Under the pieces are notes generated by a model that saw only the letters and a program-made list of their open reading frames with translations, ran no database searches and was not told the origin of the DNA. A stretch of DNA of 64,000 bases, from contig NZ_SVFW01000006.1 of the NCBI RefSeq assembly GCF_015056685.1, forward strand, positions 44,522-108,521. Reading direction: 5' to 3'. Of this stretch, positions 3,301 to 64,000 are shown one piece after another (the first letter of the stretch is position 1; each line of letters opens with the position of its first letter). Position numbers and translations under genes: made by a program. The DNA is from Butyrivibrio sp. GTDB lineage: Bacteria; Bacillota; Clostridia; Lachnospirales; Lachnospiraceae.

Positions 3301-4791
3301 ATGAGCGTAACAGTAGAGAAGCTTGAGAAGAGCATGGCTAAGCTTAAGATCGAAGTATCTGCAGAGCAGCTTGAGAAGGCTATCCAGAAGGCCTATGACA
3401 AGAACAAAAACAAGATTCAGATCCCAGGATTCCGTAAGGGTAAGGCTCCTCGTAAGATGATCGAGCAGATGTATGGCAAGGGAGTATTCTATGAGGATGC
3501 TGCTAACGAGCTTATCGAGGAAGAGTATCCTAAGGCTGTAGAGGAGTGTGGAGAAGAGGTTGTTTCTTCACCTAAGATTGATGTTGAGCAGCTTGAGGCT
3601 GGTAAGGATTTCATCTTTACAGCAGAAGTAGCTCTTAAGCCTCCGGTTAAGCTTGGTAAATATAAGGGTGTAGAGGCTGAGAAGATGGATCTCGAAGTAT
3701 CTGACAGCGATGTTGATGCTGAGATCGACAAGCAGAGAAATACAAACGCAAGAACAGTAGAAGTAACAGACAGAGCTGTTAAAGATGGCGATATCGTTAC
3801 TCTTGATTTCGAAGGATTTGTTGATGGAGTTGCATTCGAAGGTGGTAAGGGAACAGATTATCCTCTTACAATCGGTTCAGGTGCTTTCATTCCTGGATTC
3901 GAAGAGCAGCTTGTTGGATTTGAAATTGGTAAGGAAGGCGATGTTAACGTAACATTCCCTGAAGATTACCAGGCTGACAACCTTGCTGGCAAGGCTGCAA
4001 CATTCAAGTGCACAGTTAAGGCTATCAAAGCTAAAGAGCTTCCTGAGCTCAACGATGAGTTCGCTAGCGATGTATCTGATTTCGATACACTTGCTGAGTA
4101 CAAGGAAGATGTTAAGAAGAAACTCGTAGAGAGAAAGACAAACGAAGAGAAGGCTAAGAGAGAGGACGCTGTAGTTAAGGCTGTTATCGAAGATTCTGAG
4201 ATGGAACTTCCAGAAGCTATGGTTGAGACTCAGGCTAGACAGATTGTTAATGATTTTGCTCAGAGACTTCAGATGCAGGGCATGAGCATGGATCAGTACC
4301 TTCAGTATACAGGCAACACTGTAGACAAGATGATCGAGCAGGTTAAGCCACAGGCTATCGAAAGAATCCAGGCTAGACTTGTTCTTGAGGAAGTTGCTAA
4401 GGCTGAGAACATCACAGTTAGCGATGAGGACTTTGAAGAAGAACTCAAGAAGATGGCTGAGCAGTACAAGATGGAACTCGACAAGCTTAAAGAGCTTATG
4501 TCAGAGTCTGAGCAGAAGACAATGAGAAGTGACCTTGCTGTTCAGAAAGCTGCTGATTTCCTTGTAGAGAATGTTAAAGAAGTAGCTAAAAAGAAAGCTA
4601 CAAAGAAGGCTGACGATGCTGAAGAAAAGCCAGCAAAGAAGACAGCTGCAAAGAAGACTACAAAGAAAGCAGACGATGCTGAGGAAAAGCCTAAGAAGAC
4701 AGCTACAAAGAAAGCTGCTAAGAAGGATGACGACGCAGAAGAGAAGCCTAAGAAGACAACAAGAAAGAAAAAGACAGAAGAAGAGGCTTAA
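3301..4791 (+). CDS. tig: Trigger factor with an extra Lys-rich repetitive C-terminal tail
   Basis: MSVTVEKLEKSMAKLKIEV..., GFRKGKAP ribosome-binding motif and an FKBP-type PPIase core (GFIPGFEEQLVG). The tail is KKADDAEEKP(A/K)KKT repeated three times. Confidence 0.92.
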   Translation: MSVTVEKLEKSMAKLKIEVSAEQLEKAIQKAYDKNKNKIQIPGFRKGKAPRKMIEQMYGKGVFYEDAANELIEEEYPKAVEECGEEVVSSPKIDVEQLEAGKDFIFTAEVALKPPVKLGKYKGVEAEKMDLEVSDSDVDAEIDKQRNTNARTVEVTDRAVKDGDIVTLDFEGFVDGVAFEGGKGTDYPLTIGSGAFIPGFEEQLVGFEIGKEGDVNVTFPEDYQADNLAGKAATFKCTVKAIKAKELPELNDEFASDVSDFDTLAEYKEDVKKKLVERKTNEEKAKREDAVVKAVIEDSEMELPEAMVETQARQIVNDFAQRLQMQGMSMDQYLQYTGNTVDKMIEQVKPQAIERIQARLVLEEVAKAENITVSDEDFEEELKKMAEQYKMELDKLKELMSESEQKTMRSDLAVQKAADFLVENVKEVAKKKATKKADDAEEKPAKKTAAKKTTKKADDAEEKPKKTATKKAAKKDDDAEEKPKKTTRKKKTEEEA

Positions 4792-4891: not shown

Positions 4892-4955
4892 GAAGACAGA
4901 GGGACGGTTCTAATGACTTGTTTTTATAAGTCATTAGAACCGTCCCTCTGTCTTC
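4892..4955. repeat. REP-like long perfect hairpin (28-bp stem), member of a small dispersed repeat family
   Basis: GAAGACAGAGGGACGGTTCTAATGACTT gttttta TAAGTCATTAGAACCGTCCCTCTGTCTTC. The core GGGACGGTTCTAATGACTTA recurs at 62410-62449, 63687-63739 and 63742-63795. Confidence 0.8.
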
Positions 4956-17602: not shown

Positions 17603-17675
17603 TTATCCAATAAAAAGGGAGAGTATTATGGTTTTAAACATTTTGTTTTTGCCAGAATACTCTCTCTTTGTATGA

Positions 17676-17737
17676 GGGTAAGCACCTAGCGGTGTGGCTG
17701 GTCATTATGCCTCGGGCTCTGAATCCAGGAACAGTAG
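17676..17737 (-). ncRNA. Truncated left arm (5' third only) of the structured arm motif
   Basis: The reverse complement aligns with the first ~60 nt of the other arms (CTACTGTTCCTGGATTCAGAGCCCGAGGC..CCAGCCACACCGCTAGGTGCTTACCC). The remainder is deleted next to TTTGTAT. Confidence 0.5.
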
Positions 17738-17759
17738 GGGTGGCTACTTTTCTGACTAT

Positions 17760-17996
17760 GGGTAATTTTTTAATATTCCGACCTTTTACCCGTGTTTTGT
17801 TAGTACCCATGGGCAATATTTAATTTTCTCTGCCTTTTACCCGAGCTATCAGACATTCATTGGGTAAATCTATTATTTTTTTCATATTTGCCCAAGCTTG
17901 TCCAATAATTCTCGGGTAATAATCATCTCTTTTATTTCCTTACCCAAATCATACACTAACTCATGGGTAAAAACCTGCATTTTGTTCTTTTTGCCC
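17760..17996. repeat. Array of five hairpin units, GGG(T/C)AA-N20-22-TT(A/G)CCC, period 51-52 bp
   Basis: GGGYAA begins at 17760, 17811, 17862, 17914 and 17965. Partners are at 17786, 17837, 17888, 17940 and 17991. Confidence 0.8.
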
Positions 17997-18170
17997 GCAA
18001 TGCTCTTTAAAAATGGACAATACGAGACCATGATTTGAGACCAAAACACTTTTATTGGCACTTTCAATTGGTCCATATAAGATAAATCAGGCTGTTTATA
18101 ATAGAGTTATCTTATATACACAGTTGGCCGAAGACATTGCAACGCAGAGCCGCTTATGCCTCTATGTTAT

Positions 18171-18256
18171 GCACGCCGTCCAGGGAAAATCTATTCTAGC
18201 GTGCCTTGCATCCATATACCTTGCACGCAATCTGATAATAATTCACTTTAGCGTGC
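18171..18256. repeat. Two GCACGC-N22-GCGTGC hairpin units, period 52 bp
   Basis: GCACGC at 18171 and 18223; GCGTGC at 18199 and 18251. Confidence 0.7.
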
Positions 18257-18288
18257 ACGAAGCATCTGTTCAGGACAGTCATATCCTA

Positions 18289-18483
18289 CTACTGTTCTCG
18301 GATTCAGAGCCTGAGGCAGAAAAAACCAGCCACACCGCAGGTGCTTGCCCTTTACTGGTTCTGATGGAAACGCTACAATACCAGGTCCGACGGTGAGTGA
18401 AGAATTACTGTTCCCATCATCCTCACCGTCGGCAAGGTATAGACGGCGTTTCCATCAGGTTCAGTCAAGGGTGGCGCACGCAG
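18289..18483 (+). ncRNA. Right arm of copy 1: ~195-nt candidate structured RNA (unknown class)
   Basis: Starts CTACTGTTCTCGG and ends GGTGGCGCACGCAG. Nested helices carry perfect compensatory variants relative to the other copies (CTGATGGAAACGC / GCGTTTCCATCAG). Confidence 0.55.
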
Positions 18484-18584
18484 CCGATTCACTTACGCAC
18501 ATACAAAAGGAGAGTATTTTAGCAAGTATTAAACACTTATCCACATAAAAGGTAGATGGAGAGTATTCTAATATGCAGTAAATT

Positions 18585-18658: not shown

Positions 18659-20392
18659 TTATGAAGGCATTTCTTCCAATGTGAAGAATGCCATTTTTTC
18701 GTTGAGGGTTTCAGCCATGTCACGAAGATCATTTGCTGCACCACTTATGAGAGAAAATGTAGCATTGAGTTCTTCCATTGAAGCATTTGTTTCCTCTGTA
18801 GAAGCGGCATTTTGCTGAGATATAGCAGAAAGCTCTGTGATAATGTCTGAAAATCCTGCCTTAAGCTCATTAAGAAGATGAATTTTCTTGGATATTACCT
18901 TTGTAGAATTGTCTACATTGTTGACGTTTTCTACAACTGCATCCATATCATCTTTTGTAGTATTGAGCTGAGTATTCTGCTCCTGCATGCTCTTTCCGAG
19001 CTCTTCAATAATTTCAACGTTCTTCTGTGACTCTGCAACAAGATTTTCCACTATTTCCTTGATTGAAACGGCAGCGTCCTTTGACTGCTTTGAAAGGTTA
19101 CCAATTTCAGTAGCAACTACTGAGAAACCTTTTCCGTATTCGCCAGCTCTTGCTGCCTCAATTGAAGCGTTAAGAGAAAGAAGATGTGTCTGTTCAGCAA
19201 TTGCAGTAATCATGTTTGAAGCTTCTGCGATGCTCTTAACTGAATCATTAGTAGTGCGAATCTGTGTATGAATGTCTTTCATTGAAGTCATGACATCTTT
19301 ATTTTTACCCATAAGGTCATGAAGTGTATTTACAGTTCTCTGAGCACCTGACATCATTTCATTAGCAGAATTTGAAAGGTCTTCTATTTTTTCTGTAATT
19401 TCGTCAATACTGTCGCCCATCTGGTTAGTATTAGCTACAGAATTTTCCATGCTCTCAGCCTGAGAAGCAGCTCCACGGCTGATATCCTCTACAGCAGCTG
19501 TTATCTGTTCAGCTACATTAGAAGCAGATTCAGCAGAAGATGCAAGCTTTTCACCGGAAAGAGTTACATCATCTGAAAGCTTTTTAGTTGCGCTGATTAC
19601 ATCCTGAAGTTTGTCACGAACCATAGCGGAACTTTCTGCAATTACACCAAGCTCGTCCTTACGGTTGAATGTACGATCATTGATGTAGAAAGAAAGTTCA
19701 CCATCTTCAAGATTTTTAAGACCTGATACAATATCGCGGATTGATCTTGATGAAGTGCTTATAAGATAACGAGCTACACCAAAGTTGAACAGGAAAAAAC
19801 CAATGAATGTAAAAATAATAGAACGAAGCGCTGCGTCCATATTTGCTTTTACGATAGTAGTATCACGTCCTGCAAAAACCATACCAACAACAGAACCATC
19901 AGAGTTCTTAAGTGGAAGATAGTATGCGTACCAATCCTGACCTGCAATCTCAAAATTTGAAGCAAGATATTCATTTCCACTTGTGAGAACTTCGCTTACA
20001 ACTGTCTCTGAAGCTTTTGTTCCTTCCATTCGCTGACCTGTAGTTGCGTCTGTAAGAGATGTAACAAAACGTGTATCACCATAAAATAATGTATAGTGCA
20101 TACCGGTTTTCTCATGGAGTGCATCAAGCTGTGCCTGGTAAATGTCGTGAACTGCTACGTCACCTTTCATAAGCTGGCCATCCTCTGAAAGAGTCCAGTC
20201 ACCTTCAAACTGATTGGATACTTCATCATTTAAAAGAACTGCCGCTGCATGCAAACCCTCTGAAAAAGAAGTGAGATAAGCTTTCTGAATGTTTCTAAAG
20301 CCTATGATACCAACACATGCTGCCATAAGAAGGGCAAGAACTGATGCGATAACAATTATAGTGCGAACCATGTTTCTGTTTTTTGTTTTCAT
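18659..20392 (-). CDS. Methyl-accepting chemotaxis protein with Cache-like sensor domain
   Basis: N-terminal TM helix, an extracytoplasmic ~170-aa sensor, a second TM helix, HAMP, and a conserved MA signalling hairpin ([27 protein letters not shown]). Confidence 0.9.
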
Positions 20393-20494: not shown

Positions 20495-20575
20495 AGGTGC
20501 AACTGGCTGACATTTTAAAGTCCCTATAGCTTTGCGCCACAGGCTTTCGCCTGCTTTGCCAAATGTTAAATTTTA
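20495..20575 (-). promoter_or_regulatory. c-di-GMP-I (GEMM-I) riboswitch aptamer in the MCP leader
   Basis: The minus strand reads UUUGGCAAAGCAGGCGAAAGCCUGUGGCGCAAAGCUAUAGGGAC...CAGCCAGUUGCACC. It has the GGCAAA element, a P1 hairpin with a GAAA tetraloop, the (G/A)CGCAAAGC core and the AGCCAGUUGC 3' element of the GEMM-I consensus. Confidence 0.75.
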
Positions 20576-32334: not shown

Positions 32335-32346
32335 AAAAGTAGAATG

Positions 32347-32379
32347 GGCCTACACAGATAGATTGTGTAGGTCTTTTTT
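32347..32379 (+). terminator. Terminator of the sugar transferase gene
   Basis: CCTACACA ... TGTGTAGG hairpin followed by TTTTTT. Confidence 0.7.
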
Positions 32380-32395
32380 ATTGTGATTTAAGAAA
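32374..32395 (+). repeat. Left copy of the 22-bp direct repeat bracketing element copy 2
   Basis: TTTTTTATTGTGATTTAAGAAA, identical to 33453-33474. Confidence 0.85.
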
Positions 32396-32430
32396 TGTAT
32401 TCCTGTGTATAAACGTAAGTATTGCGCTTA

Positions 32431-32625
32431 CGTACGCCACCATTGACTGAACCTGAGAATAACGCCGTCTATACCTCGCCGACGGTGAGGATGATGGGAA
32501 CAGTAGTTAGATTCATGCACCGTCGGATTCAGCATTATAGCGTTTTCCTCAGAACCCGTCAATGGCTAGCACCTGGCGGTGTGGCTGGGAATTATTGCCT
32601 CGGGATCCAATTCCGAGAACAGTAG
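32431..32625 (-). ncRNA. Left arm of copy 2 (structured arm motif, minus sense)
   Basis: The reverse complement aligns base-for-base with 33167-33361 and with the arms of the other copies. Confidence 0.55.
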
Positions 32626-32643
32626 GGGGTACTTTCTATCTAC

Positions 32644-33100
32644 GGGTAATTTTTTAATTTTCTGACCTTTTGCCCGTATTTTCATAGTATCCATGGGCAA
32701 TATTTAATTTTCTCTGCCTTTTACCCGAGTTATCAAACAATCATTGGGTAAATCTATCATTATTTTCATATTTACCCAAGCTTATTCAATAATTCTCGGG
32801 TAAAAATCATCTCTTTTATTTCTTTACCCTCGCGTCATGTCGAAAAAGATGTACAAGACATGAATAATAGAATAAATGCCAGATCTCATGCCAAACGATT
32901 CTATTCAAGGCATGAAATTATGAGAAAAATCTGACACAGCATGTCGAATTACAAAACAAAGACATGGTATCTGAGTCAAAATCACTAACAACATGTCTGA
33001 ACCACTATACAAAGCATGTAATACTTGCAAAAAATCCTCAAATCATGTCAGAAGCCTATGCACAAGGCATGAAAATCGAGAAAAATCTCTCGCAGCATGC
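32644..33100. repeat. Array of four GGGYAA/TTACCC units followed by five to six CATG(T/C)C/G(A/G)CATG units, period 51-53 bp
   Basis: Unit starts: 32644, 32695, 32746, 32798, 32836, 32887, 32940, 32992, 33044, 33095-33096. Confidence 0.8.
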
Positions 33101-33166
33101 TATAGCCAGGTAAATCTTTATGTTTTCAATATCCCAAGTCTCCAGCTGATTCAATTTCAGCCATCT

Positions 33167-33361
33167 CTACTGTTCTCGGAGTCAGAGCCAGAGGCAATTG
33201 TACCAGCCACACCGCAAGGTGCTTGCCATTGACGTGGTCTGAGGAAAACGCTACAATGCTGCATCCGACTGTGAGATAGAATCTACTGTTCCCATCATCA
33301 TCACCGTCGGCGAGGTATAGACGGCGCTTTCCGCAGGTTCAGTCAATGGTGGCGTACGCAG
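33167..33361 (+). ncRNA. Right arm of copy 2 (structured arm motif, plus sense)
   Basis: Runs from CTACTGTTCTCGGAG to CAGTCAATGGTGGCGTACGCAG. Confidence 0.55.
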
Positions 33362-33452
33362 CCGCAATCTAAAATTTTTAGAGAGTTAGAGAAGTCACTT
33401 ACGCATATACAAAATGTAAGTATCCTTCGAAAGCTTTGCATCACCTTTATAA

Positions 33453-33474
33453 TTTTTTATTGTGATTTAAGAAA
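33453..33474 (+). repeat. Right copy of the 22-bp direct repeat bracketing element copy 2
   Basis: TTTTTTATTGTGATTTAAGAAA. Confidence 0.85.
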
Positions 33475-33522
33475 GTTATTTCTTTTTAATGATAGTTAAT
33501 GTTCATTTAATTGTATTTTTTC

Positions 33523-33531
33523 GGGGGGGGG
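33523..33531 (+). repeat. Homopolymeric G9 tract in the putative promoter region of the 33609 gene
   Basis: The sequence ttgtattttttcGGGGGGGGGtagact lies 78 nt upstream of the start codon. Confidence 0.9.
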
Positions 33532-33608
33532 TAGACTAGAAGTGTAACTGTGTGGGATGGCTTTTGATATAAAAAGCCAGAGGTTCTCTTTGAAAGAGAG
33601 GTAAATTG

Positions 33609-34742
33609 ATGAAACTAAGTAGATTATTTGCGGTCGCTTTAAGCGGATTGCTGTTTATTCAGGCACCGGTTGTTGTGTTGGCAGAGGAATCTTATCAGGA
33701 TGGTAATTTGTATAAGTGTGATGATGAAAAAGAAGACTACTTATTTGTAGGGCATAATGGTTTTTTCTTATCTGAAGATGAACATCAAGATTATGAAAAA
33801 GTTTATGATACAGGAAGCGCTTTTAAAGAAGTCACAGATGATAGTGCCGATGGCAAAGAATATGGAGCAGGCTATGCCTTTGATTGTCAACAGAGTCCAA
33901 GTTCCGGCTATGTTGGTGGACTAACATCAAATTTGGTTGGGTTTGAGACGACCTTGTCAGAAGACCAAGTGGTAAAACTTCAATATATCGGTAATGAAAC
34001 TGATAAACCTTATAGATTGAGCCTGACAACTGCTTCATCCGAATCAGGAACAAGTGGTGGTGAAGAAGGACAATCATCAGGAGAATCAGGAGAACAGGGA
34101 ACGACTACAGAGCCAATTACAGAACCCACTTCGGAGTCAACTACAGAACCTACCACAGAACCTACTACGGAGCCAACTACAGAGCCAACTGTAGAGCCAG
34201 CACAGCCAGAAACTCCAGCAGAAGAAAATGTAGAGCCTACACCAGTTGTTGTAACTGAAAATACCAATAATAGTCAGCCTGCAGCACCAGCTGATGAACC
34301 ACAGCAGCCAGCAAATCAGGAACCTCAGGCGCCTGATACGACAGGTAGGATCAATATAATAAGCACAGCAGTAGGCAATGCACTTCCAACTACTGAACTT
34401 GGAAACGCAGAGGTTCCTACCAGAACATTGTCTCTTGATATATTTAGTATTACTCCTGCCCAAATGACAGCAGCAGTAAGCGATACAGTAAAAAGTGCGC
34501 CAGCAGATGGAAATGTAGTTATTGAAACAAATACTATCTCATGCCTTGATAATAATATGGTTCAGGCGTTTGCACAGAGACCGGACGTTGCTATCAGCAT
34601 AGTATTCAAAAATAAAGAAGGACAAAAACTAAAAGTAACAATTCCTGCCGGATATCCTGTTACAACTCTTCTTGATGAAAATGGTTACTGCGGATATATG
34701 CACCTTGTAGATATTTTTGGTGCTACTGTTCTGTCAGAGTAA
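33609..34742 (+). CDS. Secreted protein with (TEPT)n linker, unknown function
   Basis: Signal peptide MKLSRLFAVALSGLLFIQAPVVVLA, a TEPTTEPTTEPTTEPTVEP repeat, and AGAGAGG before ATG 33609. Confidence 0.65.
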   Translation: MKLSRLFAVALSGLLFIQAPVVVLAEESYQDGNLYKCDDEKEDYLFVGHNGFFLSEDEHQDYEKVYDTGSAFKEVTDDSADGKEYGAGYAFDCQQSPSSGYVGGLTSNLVGFETTLSEDQVVKLQYIGNETDKPYRLSLTTASSESGTSGGEEGQSSGESGEQGTTTEPITEPTSESTTEPTTEPTTEPTTEPTVEPAQPETPAEENVEPTPVVVTENTNNSQPAAPADEPQQPANQEPQAPDTTGRINIISTAVGNALPTTELGNAEVPTRTLSLDIFSITPAQMTAAVSDTVKSAPADGNVVIETNTISCLDNNMVQAFAQRPDVAISIVFKNKEGQKLKVTIPAGYPVTTLLDENGYCGYMHLVDIFGATVLSE

Positions 34743-34785
34743 GATTTAGAAATTGCTAAAATGGATTAGAATTGATGATTATTAC

Positions 34786-34818
34786 GAATGCTTACGCCAC
34801 CGGCGTAAGCATTCTTTT
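34786..34818 (+). terminator. Terminator of the 33609-34742 gene
   Basis: GAATGCTTACGCC accg GCGTAAGCATTC followed by TTTT. Confidence 0.75.
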
Positions 34819-34896
34819 ATTATCAATTCACAATTGTTAAGGGTATACAAAGCATTCGAGGGGGAGTGGTTTGGATAAACGTAAGTATTGCGCTCC

Positions 34897-35088
34897 TATA
34901 CGCCACCATTGACTGAACCTGAGGAAAACGCCGTCTATACCTCGCCGACGGTGAGAATGATGGGAACAGTAATTCTTCACTCACCGTCGGCCCCAGCATT
35001 GTAGCGTTTTCATCAGAACCAGTAAAGGGCAAGCACCTAGCGGTGTGGCTGTTTTTTCTGCCTCAGGCTCAAAATCCAGGAACAGTTG
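34897..35088 (-). ncRNA. Left arm of copy 3 (minus sense)
   Basis: The reverse complement aligns with the other arms. It looks chimeric: the 5' half resembles arm 1R and the 3' half resembles arm 2L. Confidence 0.5.
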
Positions 35089-35110
35089 AGGCGGACGCTT
35101 TTCTACCTAC

Positions 35111-35353
35111 GGGCAATTTTTTAATTTTCCGACCTTTTACCCGTGTTTTATTAGTGCCCATGGGTAATATTTAATTTTCTCTGACTTTTACCCGAGTTAT
35201 CAAACAATCATTGGGTAAATCTATCATTATTTTCATATTTACCCAAGCTTATTCAATAATTCTCGGGTAAAAATCATCTCTTTTAGTTCTTTACCCAAAT
35301 CATTCACTAAACTAACTCATGGGTAAAAACCTGCATTTTGTTCTTTAGTACCC
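35111..35353. repeat. Five GGGYAA-N20-22-TTACCC hairpin units, period 51-52 bp (last interval 56)
   Basis: Starts at 35111, 35162, 35213, 35265 and 35321. Confidence 0.8.
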
Positions 35354-35585
35354 GCAATGCTCTTTAAAAAAATGGGTCAAGTCCTATTTTATAAGCTAAA
35401 TCAGGCTGTTTATAATAGAGTTATCTTATATGCACAGCTGGCCGTAGACATTGCAATGCATAGTCGCTTATACCTCTTTGTTTTGCATGCTTGATCATAC
35501 ATCTATCTTTTAGGCAGTAAGGCAATGTATGTTAAATTGAAGAGATAAGCTCCTCATATCGAACTTGCAAATTATCATCTATCCT

Positions 35586-35783
35586 TTACTGTTCTCGGAT
35601 TCAGAGCCCGAGGCACTTAAAACCAGCCACACCGAAGGTGCTTGCCCTTGACGGGTTCTGAGGGAAACGCTACAATGCTGAATCCGATGGTGAAAGAATC
35701 TATCTACTGTTCCCATCATCCTCACCGTCGGCTCGCAGGCCAGGGCGTTTTCCCTCAGGTTCAGTCAGGGGTGGCGTACAGAG
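35586..35783 (+). ncRNA. Right arm of copy 3 (plus sense)
   Basis: Runs from TTACTGTTCTCGGATTCAGAGCCCGAGGC to CAGTCAGGGGTGGCGTACAGAG. It carries compensatory changes and G.U pairs. Confidence 0.55.
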
Positions 35784-35914
35784 CCAATTTACTTATGTTT
35801 TTCAATCTTCATAATCAACAAAATTCATCTATTATTCTTATCAAATTTACACTATAGACTAACGCAATATCGCATGAGTACAATTAATTCATCGATATTC
35901 TTGGGGAGGTCTAT

Positions 35915-39328: not shown

Positions 39329-39347
39329 GCGATATAAGGATTCAAGT

Positions 39348-39383
39348 AGATACAAAGCTGTGCTTGCACAAAGCTTTGTATCT
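39348..39383 (+). terminator. Hairpin terminator after the GH31 gene
   Basis: AGATACAAAGCT ... AAGCTTTGTATCT followed by ATTTG (a weak T-run). Confidence 0.5.
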
Positions 39384-39629
39384 ATTTGAAGACTGAACGG
39401 ACATGAGGAAGTAGCACGATAGTGCGGATTCCGAATGAGCGTAGGATTGCGAGAACGAAGTGTAGCAATCCGTATATCGCGAAACAAATAATTTGTTGTG
39501 CAACGTGCATATAATTTTTAAGGAATATCAATATTTTGTGTCCAATATTTACAGAGGTACAAAATAACGATATAATAAATTATGGTATTTTTATACAAAA
39601 GCCTGCAATTAAACTTAGGAGGGAAAGAA

Positions 39630-60156: not shown

Positions 60157-62307
60157 ATGAAAAGAAAACAGATTTTGGCAGCTCTTTTGACAGGATGCTT
60201 GTTACTTGCCGGGTGCGGAACTGCAGCTGATAGTGCGGTAACTGAAACTCCTGCCGAGGGGGCAAGTAAGGAAGAGGTGGCAGCAGATGCATCAACAGAC
60301 ACTGCTAGTGCTGAGTCTTCCGAAGAAACAGCTCAGGCTGAAAGCGAATCTTATGTTGTTGATGGAGGAAGTCCCTGGATAAACTCCAACATCAAAGAAA
60401 ATGTTGTTAACAGTGATAAGGCTTCTGCAAAAGATGATCTGAATCTTGCGGTTAACTATGACTGGGCAATCACAGCAGAAATACCGGATGGATACAGTTC
60501 TTATGACAGCTTTACTGAAGTATCTCAGATAATTGATGATAAGGCACTTGAAACCTTGAAGGATGAGACAATTACCGGGCATGATGCTGAACTTGCAAGA
60601 GCATATTATAATGCTTTTCTTGATTGGGATGACCGAAATGCAAAAGGGCTTTCACCGTTGGAGCCATTTGTTAAAGATATTGAATCTCTTTCAAGCATAG
60701 AAGATGTAACAGAATTCATACTGGATAATGACAGATCAAACTTTACCCCTACTTTGGTTGGAATTGGAAACGTGGGTGATTTGACAGATTCATCAAGGTA
60801 TGTGACAAATGTGGATCATTCAAGCCTTCTACTGGGAGATTCTGCGGAGTATAAAGAGTTTAGCACAGTTGGAAAGTTAAAGTATGATGCCTACAGGAGC
60901 CTGTTTTCCAATATGATGACAAGGCTGGGATATACTAATGATGAGGCTGATAAGTATTACGATGCATGCTTTTCTTTTGAGTCAGCTCTTTCTGAGAAAG
61001 TATATACTTCGCTGGAAAACAGCGATCCTGCAATCTATGACAAGATACTTAACTATTATGAGCCAGAGGAAATGGCAGCTTTGGCTCCTAATTTCCCAAT
61101 GGATGAATTTATAAAGGAAAATGGCTACGACAATGCAAAGGTATTTCTTGTAACAGAGCCGGATGCTTTGGCAAAGATTTCAGATCTTTATACATCGGAC
61201 AACCTTGAGAACATCAAGGGATATTTCATGGTTCAGACGGTTTTGGGATGTACAACTGACCTTGACAGAGAGGCATTCGATGCAAGACTTGAGGCACAGC
61301 GTTCTATATATGGTGCATCAGGTACTCTTTCTGATGAAAAATATGCATATGCATATGTAAATGCAGCATTGCCTGAAGCTATGGAAAAGGCATATATGGC
61401 AAAGTATGATGTCACTGAGACAAAAAAAGAAGTGACGCAGTTATGCAAAGATGTAGCGGATGTTTATAGGGAAATGCTCGAAAACGAGGACTGGCTTTCT
61501 GACGAGACAAGAGAATATGCAATGGAAAAACTTGACTCATTGGAAATCAATGTGGTTGAGCCAAAAGAATACGTGGATTACAGTGGCCTTGATTTAAATG
61601 GTCTTACTTATTTTGAAATACAGAAAGCACTTGCTGATTTTAGTTGGGAGCTTGATAAAGAACGAACAAACGGAACTGTAAATAAGAATCTCTGGGAAGG
61701 TATGTCAACACTTGAAACTAATGCTTACTATGACCCAACGGCCAATTCTATTAACATTCTTCTTGGAATACTTGATGGAGTTTTTTATGGCGATGATAAG
61801 TCAAAAGAGGAGATATATGCAGGAATCGGAGCTGTTATCGGACATGAGATAAGTCATGCTTTTGATACAAACGGAGCTCAGTTTGACAAGGATGGTAATT
61901 ACAGCAATTGGTGGACTGATGAAGATTACAGTGCCTTCCAGGAAAGAGCGCAGAAACTTATAAACTACTACGATGGAATAACAGTATTTGGCGATGAAAA
62001 AGTTACCGGTTCTCTGGTACAGACTGAAGCAATTGCAGACATGGCAGGCCTTAAAGCAATGCTTACACTGGCATCCAAGGAAGAAAGCTTTGACTATAAA
62101 AAGTTCTTTGAGAGCTATGCTAATGTGTGGAAGAATATTTCTACTTATGAAGCTATTTATTCACAACTCACTCAGGATGCGCATCCATTAGATTATTTAA
62201 GAGTAAATGTAACTTCCCAGCAGTTTGATGAATTCTATGAAGCGTTCGACGTAAAAGAAGGCGATGGAATGTATCTTGCTCCGGAAGACAGAATCCTGAT
62301 CTGGTAA
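60157..62307 (+). CDS. pepO: M13 family metalloendopeptidase lipoprotein (PepO-like)
   Basis: Start MKRKQILAALLTGCLLLAGCG (lipobox) is preceded by AAGGAG. Zinc motif VIGHEISHAFD and the downstream E of the M13 family. Confidence 0.85.
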   Translation: MKRKQILAALLTGCLLLAGCGTAADSAVTETPAEGASKEEVAADASTDTASAESSEETAQAESESYVVDGGSPWINSNIKENVVNSDKASAKDDLNLAVNYDWAITAEIPDGYSSYDSFTEVSQIIDDKALETLKDETITGHDAELARAYYNAFLDWDDRNAKGLSPLEPFVKDIESLSSIEDVTEFILDNDRSNFTPTLVGIGNVGDLTDSSRYVTNVDHSSLLLGDSAEYKEFSTVGKLKYDAYRSLFSNMMTRLGYTNDEADKYYDACFSFESALSEKVYTSLENSDPAIYDKILNYYEPEEMAALAPNFPMDEFIKENGYDNAKVFLVTEPDALAKISDLYTSDNLENIKGYFMVQTVLGCTTDLDREAFDARLEAQRSIYGASGTLSDEKYAYAYVNAALPEAMEKAYMAKYDVTETKKEVTQLCKDVADVYREMLENEDWLSDETREYAMEKLDSLEINVVEPKEYVDYSGLDLNGLTYFEIQKALADFSWELDKERTNGTVNKNLWEGMSTLETNAYYDPTANSINILLGILDGVFYGDDKSKEEIYAGIGAVIGHEISHAFDTNGAQFDKDGNYSNWWTDEDYSAFQERAQKLINYYDGITVFGDEKVTGSLVQTEAIADMAGLKAMLTLASKEESFDYKKFFESYANVWKNISTYEAIYSQLTQDAHPLDYLRVNVTSQQFDEFYEAFDVKEGDGMYLAPEDRILIW

Positions 62308-62341
62308 TGGATCAATAAGAAATATATGTTGTAGATTAACG

Positions 62342-62383
62342 AGAGGATTACTGCAAACCTGTTTGGTTACGCAGTAATCCTCT
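62342..62383 (+). terminator. Terminal hairpin of copy 4, doubling as the pepO terminator (faces inward)
   Basis: AGAGGATTACTGC ... GCAGTAATCCTCT followed by TAATTTGTAT. Confidence 0.6.
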
Positions 62384-62409
62384 TAATTTGTATATGCGTA
62401 AGTGAGTTA

Positions 62410-62449
62410 GAAGACACTGGGACGGTTCTAATGACTTATGAAGACACTG
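62410..62449. repeat. REP-like unit (partial) nested in the left arm extension of copy 4
   Basis: GAAGACACTGGGACGGTTCTAATGACTTATGAAGACACTG shares its core with 4892-4955. Confidence 0.7.
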
Positions 62450-62487
62450 ATATGTATAAGCTTAAGGAATTGGTAAATGCTTAGTTC

Positions 62488-62679
62488 CGTACGCCACCAT
62501 TGACTGAGCCTGAGGAAAACGCCTTGGCCATAGAGCCGACGGTGAGGATGATGGGAACAGTAGATTATCACGCACCGTCGGATTCAGCATTGTAGCGTTT
62601 TCCTCAGAACCCGTCAATGGCAAGCACCTACGGTGTGGCTGGGTGTTATTGCCTCAGGCTCCAAATCCGAGAACAGTAG
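62488..62679 (-). ncRNA. Left arm of copy 4 (minus sense)
   Basis: The reverse complement aligns with 63460-63655, and all long-range helices are perfect. Confidence 0.55.
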
Positions 62680-62680
62680 T

Positions 62681-63321
62681 GGTGGCTACTTTCAAGGATA
62701 TGTGTGACTATATGTCTGCGTCTTTCAATGTATAGAGAGCGAAGATTATGTTTTGGAAACATAGCCCGTTTTTTGAACTTACAACACCAGTCGTCAAGTT
62801 TTTTGACTTGCGTTTTTGGGCATATACGGCCTTTTTTGAAGTTACCACACCATTATATAGATGATCATATGTTTCAGTTTACTCATCCAATGGATGTGGC
62901 AATCCACTTTTTTCTCGTATATGCCCATTTTCGCTTCCTGAAAATTTTGTCGATGGATGTGTTAACTTAAAAGTATGACTATATACCCAGTTCCTCATGT
63001 TCAATTCATTCCATACGTCGTGAAGAATAATGGTTTGGGCATATAGCGCTTTGGAGAGCTTCCAGCCACCTTTGATTCTTACTATTTTGGGCATATAGCA
63101 GCTTTTTGCGAGGCCAGCCACCCCTCAAATGGGCATATAGGCTGATTTCAAGCCTCTGGCCACCCGTTAAAATGGTGGCTGTGGACGGATAATTACCGTA
63201 TATGCCCAATCGTCTGCGATAAAACTATGACGAGGGGTGGCTGCAAGCCTAAAATCAGGCTATATACCCAAAATCGGTTTTTTTACGGGTGGCTGAGGTA
63301 TTGAAAACGAGCTATATGCCC
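62681..63321. repeat. Array of about ten bipartite modules: box A (T)GGGCATATAG and box B CCAGCCACC, in both orientations
   Basis: Forward box A at 62818, 63037, 63089 and 63131. Reverse box A (TATAT(G/A)(C/T)C(C)) at 62709, 62918, 62980, 63199, 63261 and 63313. Same-orientation spacings are 42, 52, 52, 62 and 62 bp. Confidence 0.75.
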
Positions 63322-63459
63322 AAAGACAATGCTTTCGGCTCTCTAAACTACTACTACCTATAGAGTGGACACATACAAACTTCCTTTAGCCCCACTTTCG
63401 TATGCAACATGCTGCATGCGAAAACTGGCGCGCCAGCGTTTTCTTAAAAGCAGCCGCAT

Positions 63460-63655
63460 CTACTGTTCTCGGAATTGGAGTCAGAGGCATTTTAAACCAG
63501 CCACACCGCTAGGTGCTTGCCATTGACGGGTTCTGAGGAAAACGCTACAATTCTGAATCCGACGGTGCTAGAAAATCTACTGTTCCCATCATCATCACCG
63601 TCGGCAGAGCTGGCAAGGCGTTTTCCTCAGACTCAGTCAATGGTGGCGTACGCAG
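63460..63655 (+). ncRNA. Right arm of copy 4 (plus sense), reference copy for the structural model
   Basis: Helices: CCATTGAC 63520-27 with GTCAATGG 63636-43; CTGAGGAAAACGC 63533-45 with GCGTTTTCCTCAG 63618-30; CCGACGGTG 63559-67 with CACCGTCGG 63596-604. Confidence 0.55.
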
Positions 63656-63686
63656 TTACAACCTATACTTTTCTAAGAAGTTAAAT

Positions 63687-63795
63687 GGACGGTTGAGAGA
63701 ATTGCTTTTAATAAGTCATTAGAACCGTCCCGGTGTCTTGTGGACGGTTGAGTGACTTGCTTTTAATAAGTCATTAGAACCGTCCCGGTGTCTTC
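63687..63795. repeat. Two tandem REP-like units nested in the right arm extension of copy 4
   Basis: GGACGGTTGAG(A/T)GA(A/C)TTGCTTTTAATAAGTCATTAGAACCGTCCCGGTGTCTT occurs twice (63687-63739 and 63742-63795). Confidence 0.75.
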
Positions 63796-63825
63796 TTTCA
63801 ACATACTTACGCTTATACAAATAAA

Positions 63826-63867
63826 GAGGAATACTGCGTAACCAAACAGGTTGGCAGTATTCCTCTC
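63826..63867 (-). terminator. Terminal hairpin of copy 4 facing inward from the right-hand gene
   Basis: AGAGGAATACTGC ... GGCAGTATTCCTCT. On the minus strand it is followed by TTTATTTGTAT. Confidence 0.5.
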
Positions 63868-63937
63868 GTTAATCTCTTATGCGTAAAAAACTTAATAAGG
63901 GTTGAAATTTAATTTATCACTTGCGATAGAAAAATTT

Positions 63938-64000
63938 TTACAGTGATTTTATTCGGTTAATGGCCTCTACTGTGTTTTCGTAGCTTCCAAAAGCTGTGAG
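63938..64000 (-). CDS. Possible 3' end (20 codons) of a minus-strand gene continuing beyond the window
   Basis: The open frame from the window edge reads ...LTAFGSYENTVEAINRIKSL-stop. It is too short to identify. Confidence 0.25.
   Translation of the reverse strand, partial: LTAFGSYENTVEAINRIKSL

Follow-up and report, generated by a model that had tools for sequence, protein, structure and literature searches.

The 64-kb window analysed here (the whole stretch of rumen Butyrivibrio DNA, 41% G+C) contains four copies of a non-coding mosaic element of 0.9-1.6 kb which is present in high copy number in the Butyrivibrio proteoclasticus clade, and the region described below is the centre of copy 4. 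We found that this centre holds 11 copies of a bipartite module of ~36 bp, in which a box A is followed by a box B. With a probability of roughly one half we read these A/B modules as phased binding sites on duplex DNA for a one-faced, probably wrapped multi-protein complex, and as one exchangeable type of array placed between two arms with putative outward promoters. The conserved boxes, the exact gap within the sites, the whole-turn spacing between them and the lack of covariation fit sequence-specific recognition of the duplex.

All four copies are intergenic and non-coding (copies 1 to 4 span about 17655-18520, 32400-33420, 34866-35810 and 62330-63876, respectively) and follow the same plan: two conserved inverted arms of ~200 nt flank a variable centre of 470-1220 bp that consists of interchangeable site arrays, and in many copies of the element the outermost parts are terminator-like hairpins facing inward. 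For comparison we fetched 92 related loci (L001-L092) via the arm pattern; an nhmmer profile of the arm gave 117 arms and 25 complete elements, and 11 solo elements were also examined.

Bipartite modules and their recurrence

The module consensus is TTGGGYATATA(G/C), about 17 variable nt with a T-rich middle and then CAGCCACC, where box B always lies 3' of box A on the same strand. GGGYATATA occurs nine times in the window, in each case inside 62818-63321, compared with an expectation of 0.67, and none of 100 shuffles reached this count. The modules are arranged in two dyad-symmetric blocks, X with two forward and two reverse modules and Y with three of each, and the box B ends face each other. 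For block Y (63035-63323) we observed (C)AGCCACC as box B in six modules and a gap of 19 nt between GGGYATATA and GCCACC in 6/6. On the + strand the forward modules F1 (TTGGGCATATAG, N17, CCAGCCACC), F2 and F3 occupy 63035-63070, 63087-63122 and 63129-63164, and on the − strand the reverse modules R1, R2 and R3 occupy 63174-63209, 63236-63271 and 63288-63323, respectively. The box B end of R1 faces F3, and R3 forms inverted repeat I23 with F2. The first-pass annotation, made from the letters of the window, had placed the forward box A copies (GGGCATATA) at 63037, 63089 and 63131, the reverse ones at 63199-63207, 63261-63269 and 63313-63321 and the box B complement GGTGGCT at 63174, 63236 and 63288, with same-orientation spacings of 52, 42, 62, 52 and 62 bp; all of these positions and spacings were reproduced.

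The block at 62681-62990 looks older, and its box B reads CCACACC or CACATCC. Module 0 abuts the left arm (62681-62716, − strand) and consists of the box A-like GACATATAG, a spacer and the box B GTAGCCACC. Block X has a forward module at 62816-62852 (TTGGGCATATAC, 18 nt, CCACACC; + strand) and, on the − strand, reverse modules at 62892-62928 (box B variant GCCACATCC, box A at 62918-62926) and 62955-62990 (box B variant CACATCC, box A GGGTATATA at 62980-62988). The additional modules listed earlier are thus present, with weaker variants of box B, and the former total of about ten becomes 11; a degenerate forward module at 62753-62788 (TTGGAAACATAG ... ACAACACC; + strand), which has homologues in other X-type half-centres, was added to the list. 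A tail between block Y and the right arm (63324-63457, + strand) is kept in several sister copies. Two likenesses that had been pointed out are real: box B resembles CCAGCCACACC inside every arm, and in copies 1 and 4 a GGTGGCTAC box adjoins the left arm at its inner end.

Both boxes recur in 21/25 complete centres with the same spacing classes, so neither of the outcomes named in the first-pass annotation as speaking against it, a lack of the boxes in other copies or random spacing there, was seen. The 25 complete centres contain 94 modules, the exact GGGCATATA was observed in 21/25 of them, and box A occurs 237 times over all loci. Across the 92 related loci the 19-nt gap between GGGYATATA and GCCACC is kept in 125/131 modules. 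When 209 distinct modules were aligned, high information was found only in TTGGGYATATA(G/C) and (C)AGCCACC; between the boxes there is a weak run of Ts in the middle of the site, and the linkers show no conservation. Complementarity between forward and reverse modules is confined to the boxes, and thus the blocks are not long hairpins. Window copies 1-3 have no A/B module and carry other site types instead, so that A/B is one interchangeable type of cassette and not a signature of the family. The distance from F2 to F3 is 42 bp in copy 4 and in locus L045 and mostly 51-52 bp elsewhere, where the longer copies carry a 10-bp insert (CGAGCGCTCA or similar); this indel lies between CTCA repeats.

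Two other identities were considered for the modules and rejected. [quoted passage not shown] Sigma-70 promoters have a spacer of 17 ± 1 bp, with which the geometry of TGGCTG-N17-TATATG agrees, but the hexamers are poor: at least 4 positions of the −35 hexamer matched in 15% of the modules read from A to B and in 6% read from B to A, versus 17% at control offsets.

Helical phasing and proposed recognition as duplex DNA

The centres vary from copy to copy in the kind of array that they hold, and at least six interchangeable types exist. Besides A/B modules we observed arrays of GTRGGATAA-N20-TTATCCYAC (periods of 63-66, 71-75 and 84 bp), TACGGATAAGA-N-TCTTATCCGTA (75 bp), TAGGTCATG-N36-CATGACCTA (73-74 bp) and (A)TGGGTAA-N20-TTACCC(G) (51-52 bp, in window copies 1-3) as well as CATGTC/GGCATG in the right half of copy 2. 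TTATCC(C/T)AC was compared with the DnaA box TTATCCACA, and with 6/9 matches this identity was rejected by inspection. The centres are mosaics of half-centres of ~300 bp, each with a fixed orientation relative to the nearest arm, and in about 760 kb of sampled DNA no site of any type lay more than 1.5 kb from an arm.

Neighbouring box A copies in the same orientation are 32, 41-42, 50-53, 61-64, 103-104 or 114-115 bp apart. The circular resultant of the distances is 0.90 at a period of 10.3-10.5 bp, compared with 0.5-0.7 at 9.5, 11.5 or 12 bp. Pooled with the unrelated arrays, the independent classes lie at about 32, 42, 52, 63, 74 and 84 bp and correspond to 3-8 turns of 10.4-10.5 bp. Many of the spacing counts are inherited and not independent, and the phasing argument therefore rests on six classes. 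All of these roughly six classes deviate by no more than about 1 bp from a multiple of 10.5, and by a rough estimate the probability of this by chance is <0.001. The AA/TT spectrum of the 25 centres has a sharp peak at 10.25-10.5 bp (z about 12), and within the units weak autocorrelation maxima were detected at 19-22, 29-31 and 42-43 bp. The earlier description of bipartite, bidirectional sites spaced by whole helical turns holds and is strengthened by the 25 complete sister elements. We propose that whole-turn spacing would bring the bound proteins onto one face of the DNA, where they could build a wrapped or looped complex, and that the reader of each module would be a single protein or a pair of proteins whose two DNA-reading parts are separated by about 2.5 turns.

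The palindromic arrays bear on the question of whether the sites are read as a duplex or as a folded strand. At the R/Y position of 92 GGATAA palindromes we counted GT 34, AC 25, AT 22 and GC 11 times, so Watson-Crick pairs are below the expectation under independence. The spacer is 20 nt in 87/92, and palindromes oriented by the nearest arm showed no G.U strand bias. Given the lack of Watson-Crick covariation and of strand bias we rejected RNA hairpins for these arrays and read them as protein sites on double-stranded DNA. Nor did the centre modules show the marks of a structured non-coding RNA, as neither compensatory pairing changes nor one-strand G.U tolerance was found in them; the arms show both. 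The first-pass annotation had also described small hairpins with swapped stem halves between the boxes of F3 and R2. AGGCT..AGCCT in F3 and AGCCT..AGGCT in R2 do exist, but the stem is lost in homologues (homologous F3 modules elsewhere are short of 2/5 stem pairs) and the inter-box segments fold weakly: for 60 distinct segments the mean z is about −0.9, whichever strand is folded.

Arms, outer ends and genomic setting

The left arm of copy 4 lies at 62483-62681 (− strand, outward; nhmmer score 223.8) and the right arm at 63458-63657 (+ strand, outward), and they are complementary over 143 nt at 91%. Both contain a promoter-like TTGACG-17-TACAAT, at 62617-62589 and 63523-63551, respectively. 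This outward motif scores at least 9/12 in 115/115 arms, with TAAAAT and TATAAT as variants of the −10 hexamer. X-type half-centres have an extra outward promoter-like TTTACA-16-TATAGT 25 nt upstream of the arm, in which TATAGT coincides with the box A of module 0. The arm forms a long, imperfect hairpin with an RNAalifold consensus of −53 kcal/mol and 44 pairs, 4 of them with compensatory double changes. The −35 hexamer and the 17-bp spacer are base-paired in this hairpin; the −10 hexamer is located on the conserved side of an internal loop (1.68 bits), and the opposite side is variable (0.78 bits). Among the one-sided changes on the outward strand we counted G.U 268 vs A.C 16 overall and G.U 107 vs A.C 15 for pairs that are Watson-Crick in the majority. 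The ratio of C>T to G>A was 5:1 at paired and 1.1:1 at unpaired positions. Selection thus acts on the arm in single-stranded form, as RNA or as single-stranded DNA (ssDNA), and the selected strand points outward on both sides. A comparison of the two strands by the minimum free energy of single sequences was uninformative, and the pair-level counts were used. An outward-strand open reading frame (ORF) of 53-55 aa was rejected as a coding sequence, as its frame is broken by 2-nt indels in the apical loop between copies. On the outward strand every arm has two copies of the invariant CTACTGTTC(C/T)C, of which one stands at the inner end and the other in the apical loop of 28 nt (e.g. 63460-63470 and 63577-63590), and this doubling suggests a repeated recognition motif for a putative partner.

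The layout of the arm resembles an open-promoter mimic or a promoter in ssDNA. Frpo and ssi of conjugative plasmids are ssDNA promoters, and 6S RNA is an open-promoter mimic. The arms share with them a long imperfect hairpin that holds promoter hexamers and selection for folding of one strand. They differ in that they are chromosomal, form inverted pairs, are present in dozens of copies, have no conjugative context and gave no Rfam match to 6S. An ordinary double-stranded promoter accounts equally well for the hexamers.

The arrays would lie between, and upstream of, two outward promoters of sigma-70 type, and their most likely role given this position would be that of a regulatory or architectural scaffold for divergent outward transcripts. 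In 75% of cases such a transcript would enter the gene next to it from the 3' end, in antisense. We infer that proteins bind the modules, that transcription starts at the arm promoters and that these promoters are under the control of the arrays, the last link being drawn from position only.

Outside the arms, copy 4 has on its left the hairpin TGTAGATTAACGAGAGGATTACTGC...GCAGTAATCCTC followed by TTAATTT (62330-62387, + strand; inward terminator-like) and the outer box TTGTATATGCGTAAGT (62388-62403, + strand), whose inverted partner is the right outer box at 63805-63820 (− strand; ACTTACGCTTATACAA on the + strand). The right outer hairpin (63823-63876, − strand) is also terminator-like in the inward direction and belongs to inverted repeat I12 (82 nt, 89% complementary with 62333-62414). 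Allowing for up to 2 mismatches we found 81 matches of the outer box across loci, always outside an arm, and the outer hairpin with a T-run on the inward strand is conserved in many copies. For 63 outer hairpins we counted G.T 126 vs A.C 15 on the inward strand, which folds 3.8 kcal better. Such tolerance of G.U on the inward strand is as expected for terminators of inward-reading genes, and the outer hairpins look like element-borne terminators for genes that read into the element. The flanks are housekeeping genes, and 79/105 flanking genes point into the element; copy 4 is flanked by convergent M13-peptidase and aminotransferase genes. A small palindromic repeat stands singly or in tandem between arm and outer box in copy 4 (62418-62445 and 63686-63794) and in many sisters; the second of these sites holds two tandem units (GGACGGTT...AACCGTCC; direct-repeat family D8). 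The repeat GGGACGGTTCTAATGACTT...AAGTCATTAGAACCGTCCC was also found alone at 4901-4954, outside any element.

In a collection of species-representative genomes the arm pattern gave >92 stretches among the matches listed, all from Butyrivibrio except one chance match. Sources among these listed matches were B. proteoclasticus P18, Butyrivibrio sp. Su6 and sp. AE2015 and the metagenome-assembled genomes (MAGs) RGIG9232 and RGIG1500. One genome of the B. proteoclasticus clade contains at least 46 arms. The viral contigs gave 0 matches to the arm pattern; 3 single matches to the GTRGGATAA palindrome and 2 to the A/B module were judged to be near chance, without a computed expectation or an inspection of the loci. 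The whole element had no match among the PLSDB plasmids, an Rfam scan of the window at the gathering thresholds gave nothing over the elements, an Rfam scan of 62300-64000 by E-value gave chance matches only, and the search for tRNA and tmRNA found none. In the literature on Butyrivibrio repeats (including the B316 genome), on covariation in non-coding RNAs and on transposable elements of the miniature inverted-repeat kind (MITEs) and repetitive extragenic palindromic (REP) elements we found no description of the element. Exact matches to the ClpB and esterase proteins of the window were found only on ENA, JGI and Logan metagenome contigs. In the AE2015 draft, most matches fall into the 8-kb block at one or the other end of a contig, and several contigs from metagenomes terminate at the element, which thus appears to break short-read assemblies.

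For copies 1, 2 and 4, other species have an orthologue at the corresponding locus. In copy 1 the left arm is without its big hairpin (17655-17690); the orthologue in MAG RGIG9232 (L069) has it, and the strain of the window must therefore have lost DNA between the outer box and AAGCACCT by deletion. In Su6 the orthologue of copy 2 (L030:6816-7598 vs window 32628-33164) keeps the flanks and the arms, and its centre is wholly different: the window has GGGTAA and CATGTC arrays and Su6 has the A/B type. We conclude that centres are exchanged between copies. Su6 and P18 have no copy 3; different genes occupy that locus in both. A block of 3.58 kb (32335-35914), which comprises copy 2, the gene for a secreted TEPT-repeat protein of 378 aa and copy 3, is missing from some strains (L101:4840-5001; also L104, L105 and L107) whose flanking proteins are 100% identical. 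In this block-free form the T-run of the upstream gene's native terminator directly abuts CAATCTTCAT, and the block ends exactly at that T-run. This is the only empty site found, and a T-run, which is also the tail of a terminator, is present on both sides of the block; an empty site of a single element was not found. Copy 2 is furthermore flanked by a perfect 22-bp direct repeat TTTTTTATTGTGATTTAAGAAA (32374-32395 and 33453-33474), which may represent a target duplication of unusual length or else the scar of a recombination event.

Elsewhere in the window we detected a cyclic di-GMP-I riboswitch (Rfam, 54.5 bits; 20495-20570, − strand) upstream of the gene for a Cache-type methyl-accepting chemoreceptor (18659-20392), a full-length Clostridiales-1 RNA (Rfam, 108 bits; 39330-39479, + strand) between the genes for a GH31 and a sugar-binding protein, and three tandem lysine-rich coding repeats of 57-60 nt (4576-4749) within the ORF at 3301-4791.

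Alternative readings and described relatives

Several observations weigh against a phased complex that acts on the arm promoters. No candidate gene for a binding protein was found in or next to any element, and at least six site types would need several proteins or one that is unusually flexible. The AA/TT peak at 10.5 bp is partly a common harmonic of the unit lengths, and the spacing counts are inflated by shared descent among the copies, with only about six independent classes. The helical phase of the modules shows no relation to the arm or to its promoter (resultant about 0.1), so a face-specific contact with RNA polymerase is unsupported. In addition, the covarying stems of the arm span the predicted start site of the internal promoter, and thus a longer upstream transcript or an ssDNA form must exist.

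The first-pass annotation had regarded such sites as typical of transposase or recombinase ends, iterons or partition centromeres, and none of these identities stood. Transposase end-binding sites of the Tn7, Mu or Tn402 type cluster in inverted orientation at both termini of a mobile unit that encodes its transposase. The modules are central, 0-400 bp inside the arms, the outer ends differ from them and no copy has a transposase or recombinase gene in or beside it. Partition centromeres are arrays of ParB or ParR sites beside a parAB operon. The absence of rep and par genes from the element flanks, the lack of a plasmid match, the dozens of copies per chromosome and the presence of four copies within 64 kb argue against iterons and centromeres. 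All three kinds of site resemble the modules in their possible mode of action.

A related possibility, which we consider unlikely, is that the modules serve as accessory or synaptic sites, in the manner of res, cer or subterminal repeats, for a recombinase or transposase that is encoded elsewhere and moves the elements or exchanges their centres. Dyad-symmetric clusters of 3 + 3 and 2 + 2 modules with integral-turn spacing are what res accessory sites look like, and the new centre of the Su6 orthologue of copy 2, the 3.58-kb block that comes and goes between strains and ends at a terminator T-run, and the 22-bp repeat around copy 2 all point in this direction. However, the sites are central and not terminal, at least six unrelated site types would need as many enzymes, and no transposase or recombinase gene was found in or beside the 25 complete and 11 solo elements except for an unrelated insertion sequence (IS) in L074. 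Moreover, most copies are orthologous across species and thus old and stable, and homologous recombination via the ~200-bp arms can explain the swapping of centres.

It is improbable, in our estimation, that the arrays are purely architectural or titrating, i.e. iteron-like, centromere-like, nucleoid-protein sites or gyrase sites of the BIME-2 kind, without any link to the arm promoters. This would agree with phased repeats whose periods of 5-8 helical turns keep A/T tracts in phase, with the high density (four copies within the 64-kb window, at least 46 arms in a single genome), and with the missing phase relation to the arms; sopC, with 43-bp units that each contain an inverted repeat, and P1 parS with its box A and box B are formal analogues. 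The missing par and rep genes and plasmid match speak against it, as do the numbers, since a replicon has one or a few centromeres or iterons and not dozens, and several specificities are hard to reconcile with a single nucleoid protein.

The arrays could also be functionless minisatellites, produced by slippage in selfish DNA, with boxes conserved by recent ancestry only. Some arrays are indeed near-identical tandems (e.g. the 74-bp units in L027), the change from 52 to 42 bp is a 10-bp deletion between CTCA direct repeats, and the elements mostly lie in tolerant intergenic DNA at gene 3' ends, where 79/105 flanking genes point inwards. We nevertheless give this idea little credence, as older arrays keep the boxes and the exact gaps of 19-20 nt while linkers and inter-box segments have diverged, and slippage alone does not predict kept boxes together with quantised spacing in six classes within about 1 bp of multiples of 10.5.

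An action of the modules in a single strand, either as units repeated along a long non-coding RNA whose transcription covers the centre or in ssDNA, with the boxes as protein- or RNA-binding motifs around an inter-box hairpin, is very unlikely: the flanking arms clearly act single-stranded on the outward strand, a small inter-box dyad exists in each module class (with swapped stems in F3 and R2) and box B has the same sense as two segments of the arm transcript, but the hairpins are weak, equal on both strands and lost among homologues, the palindromic arrays lack covariation and G.U bias, forward and reverse modules share one strand, no Rfam match was found and a spacing of 10.5 bp is meaningless for RNA.

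The nearest described kinds of repeat are the BOX elements and the bacterial interspersed mosaic elements (BIMEs), which share the mosaic, high-copy, 3'-intergenic nature. BOX elements of Streptococcus pneumoniae, with variants in S. suis, have the structure boxA-(boxB)n-boxC and a length of about 100-300 bp (Croucher et al. 2011, PMC3049150). Like the Butyrivibrio element they are non-coding, intergenic, modular and high-copy, their terminal modules are partly complementary and enclose variable internal tandems, they are enriched downstream of genes, and their internal module types differ between related species (PMC3049150). BOX elements have one or two internal module types in one orientation and no reported helical quantisation (PMC3049150). 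The element described here measures 0.9-1.6 kb, with at least six site types in both orientations, periods of 3-8 turns and a promoter-like site per arm. Compared by description and without alignment, the two have no sequence similarity. The general design of a mosaic repeat, in which two terminal modules enclose variable internal tandem modules at many intergenic places, is present.

BIMEs are built from G+C-rich REP hairpins of ~35 bp that belong to one family, alternate in orientation with fixed linkers, are mobilised by REP-associated tyrosine transposases (RAYTs) and bind IHF, gyrase and Pol I. Both are high-copy mosaics of alternating palindromic units at the 3' ends of genes and proposed protein scaffolds. 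The present element differs by its bipartite or long-spacer palindromes of several families, which lie inside arms of ~200 nt, and no RAYT-like gene was seen; we take its modules (GGGYATATA, GCCACC, GGATAA and others) to be unlike the G+C-rich REP stem. What is new with respect to BOX elements and BIMEs is the three to ten times larger size, the helically quantised interchangeable arrays, the arms with a promoter-like site and strand-specific covariation, and the inward terminators.

Tandem helically phased sites are also known from plasmid centromeres and iterons, such as sopC of F with its 43-bp units, P1 parS with box A, box B and a bend made by IHF, parC of R1 and the IncQ oriV with ssiA and ssiB. 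Bipartite boxes are shared with P1 parS, two opposed sets with parC, and strand-specific hairpins on opposite strands with the IncQ oriV. Each plasmid replicon has one such system, located beside its rep or par genes and with periods of 11-43 bp, whereas the element is present dozens of times per chromosome, with periods of 42-84 bp, several specificities and no plasmid match. Iterons in particular are tandem direct repeats of 17-22 bp in helical phase; the phasing is present here, and the units are 36-bp sites at periods of 42-84 bp in both orientations.

Transposons of the foldback or subterminal-repeat type (Drosophila FB, maize En/Spm) and tandem-repeat MITEs (clam DTC84) resemble the element in that they are non-coding with long inverted arms and bidirectional internal repeat arrays whose repeat number varies by copy. 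The transposons are eukaryotic and their arrays lie in the terminal arms where the transposase binds, whereas the Butyrivibrio element has its arrays in the centre, and its arms consist of unique sequence with covariation of RNA type. MITEs are usually <600 bp long and their terminal inverted repeats usually measure 15-40 bp. Terminal inverted repeats are present in the element and far longer than usual (143 nt at 91% for the arms, 82 nt at 89% for the outer hairpins and boxes); the small size is lacking, as the elements measure 0.9-1.6 kb, and no related autonomous IS with matching ends was seen among the 25 complete and 11 solo copies, none of which contains a transposase except for the unrelated IS in L074.

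More broadly, we offer the tentative and somewhat doubtful suggestion that Butyrivibrio chromosomes hold dozens to hundreds of dispersed "operator-array hubs", each with a phased cassette for one of several DNA-binding proteins that could be exchanged between loci via the arms, with promoter-bearing arms that send antisense transcripts into adjacent genes at their 3' ends, and with insulating inward terminators. Together they would form a modular system of regulation and insulation across the genome, for which there would be no described bacterial counterpart. On a practical level, palindromic repeats of ~1 kb appear to break short-read assemblies and mark strain-variable gene blocks in a rumen bacterium of importance for fibre degradation. 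Should the arrays prove to be protein scaffolds, the element would be an interspersed repeat whose internal logic is readable from sequence, and a single bacterial repeat would unite bipartite sites of fixed build, spacing by whole turns, several interchangeable specificities, promoters that point outward and structured arms. It would then provide a tractable system for the study of higher-order protein-DNA complexes on dispersed repeats and of their effects on neighbouring genes.

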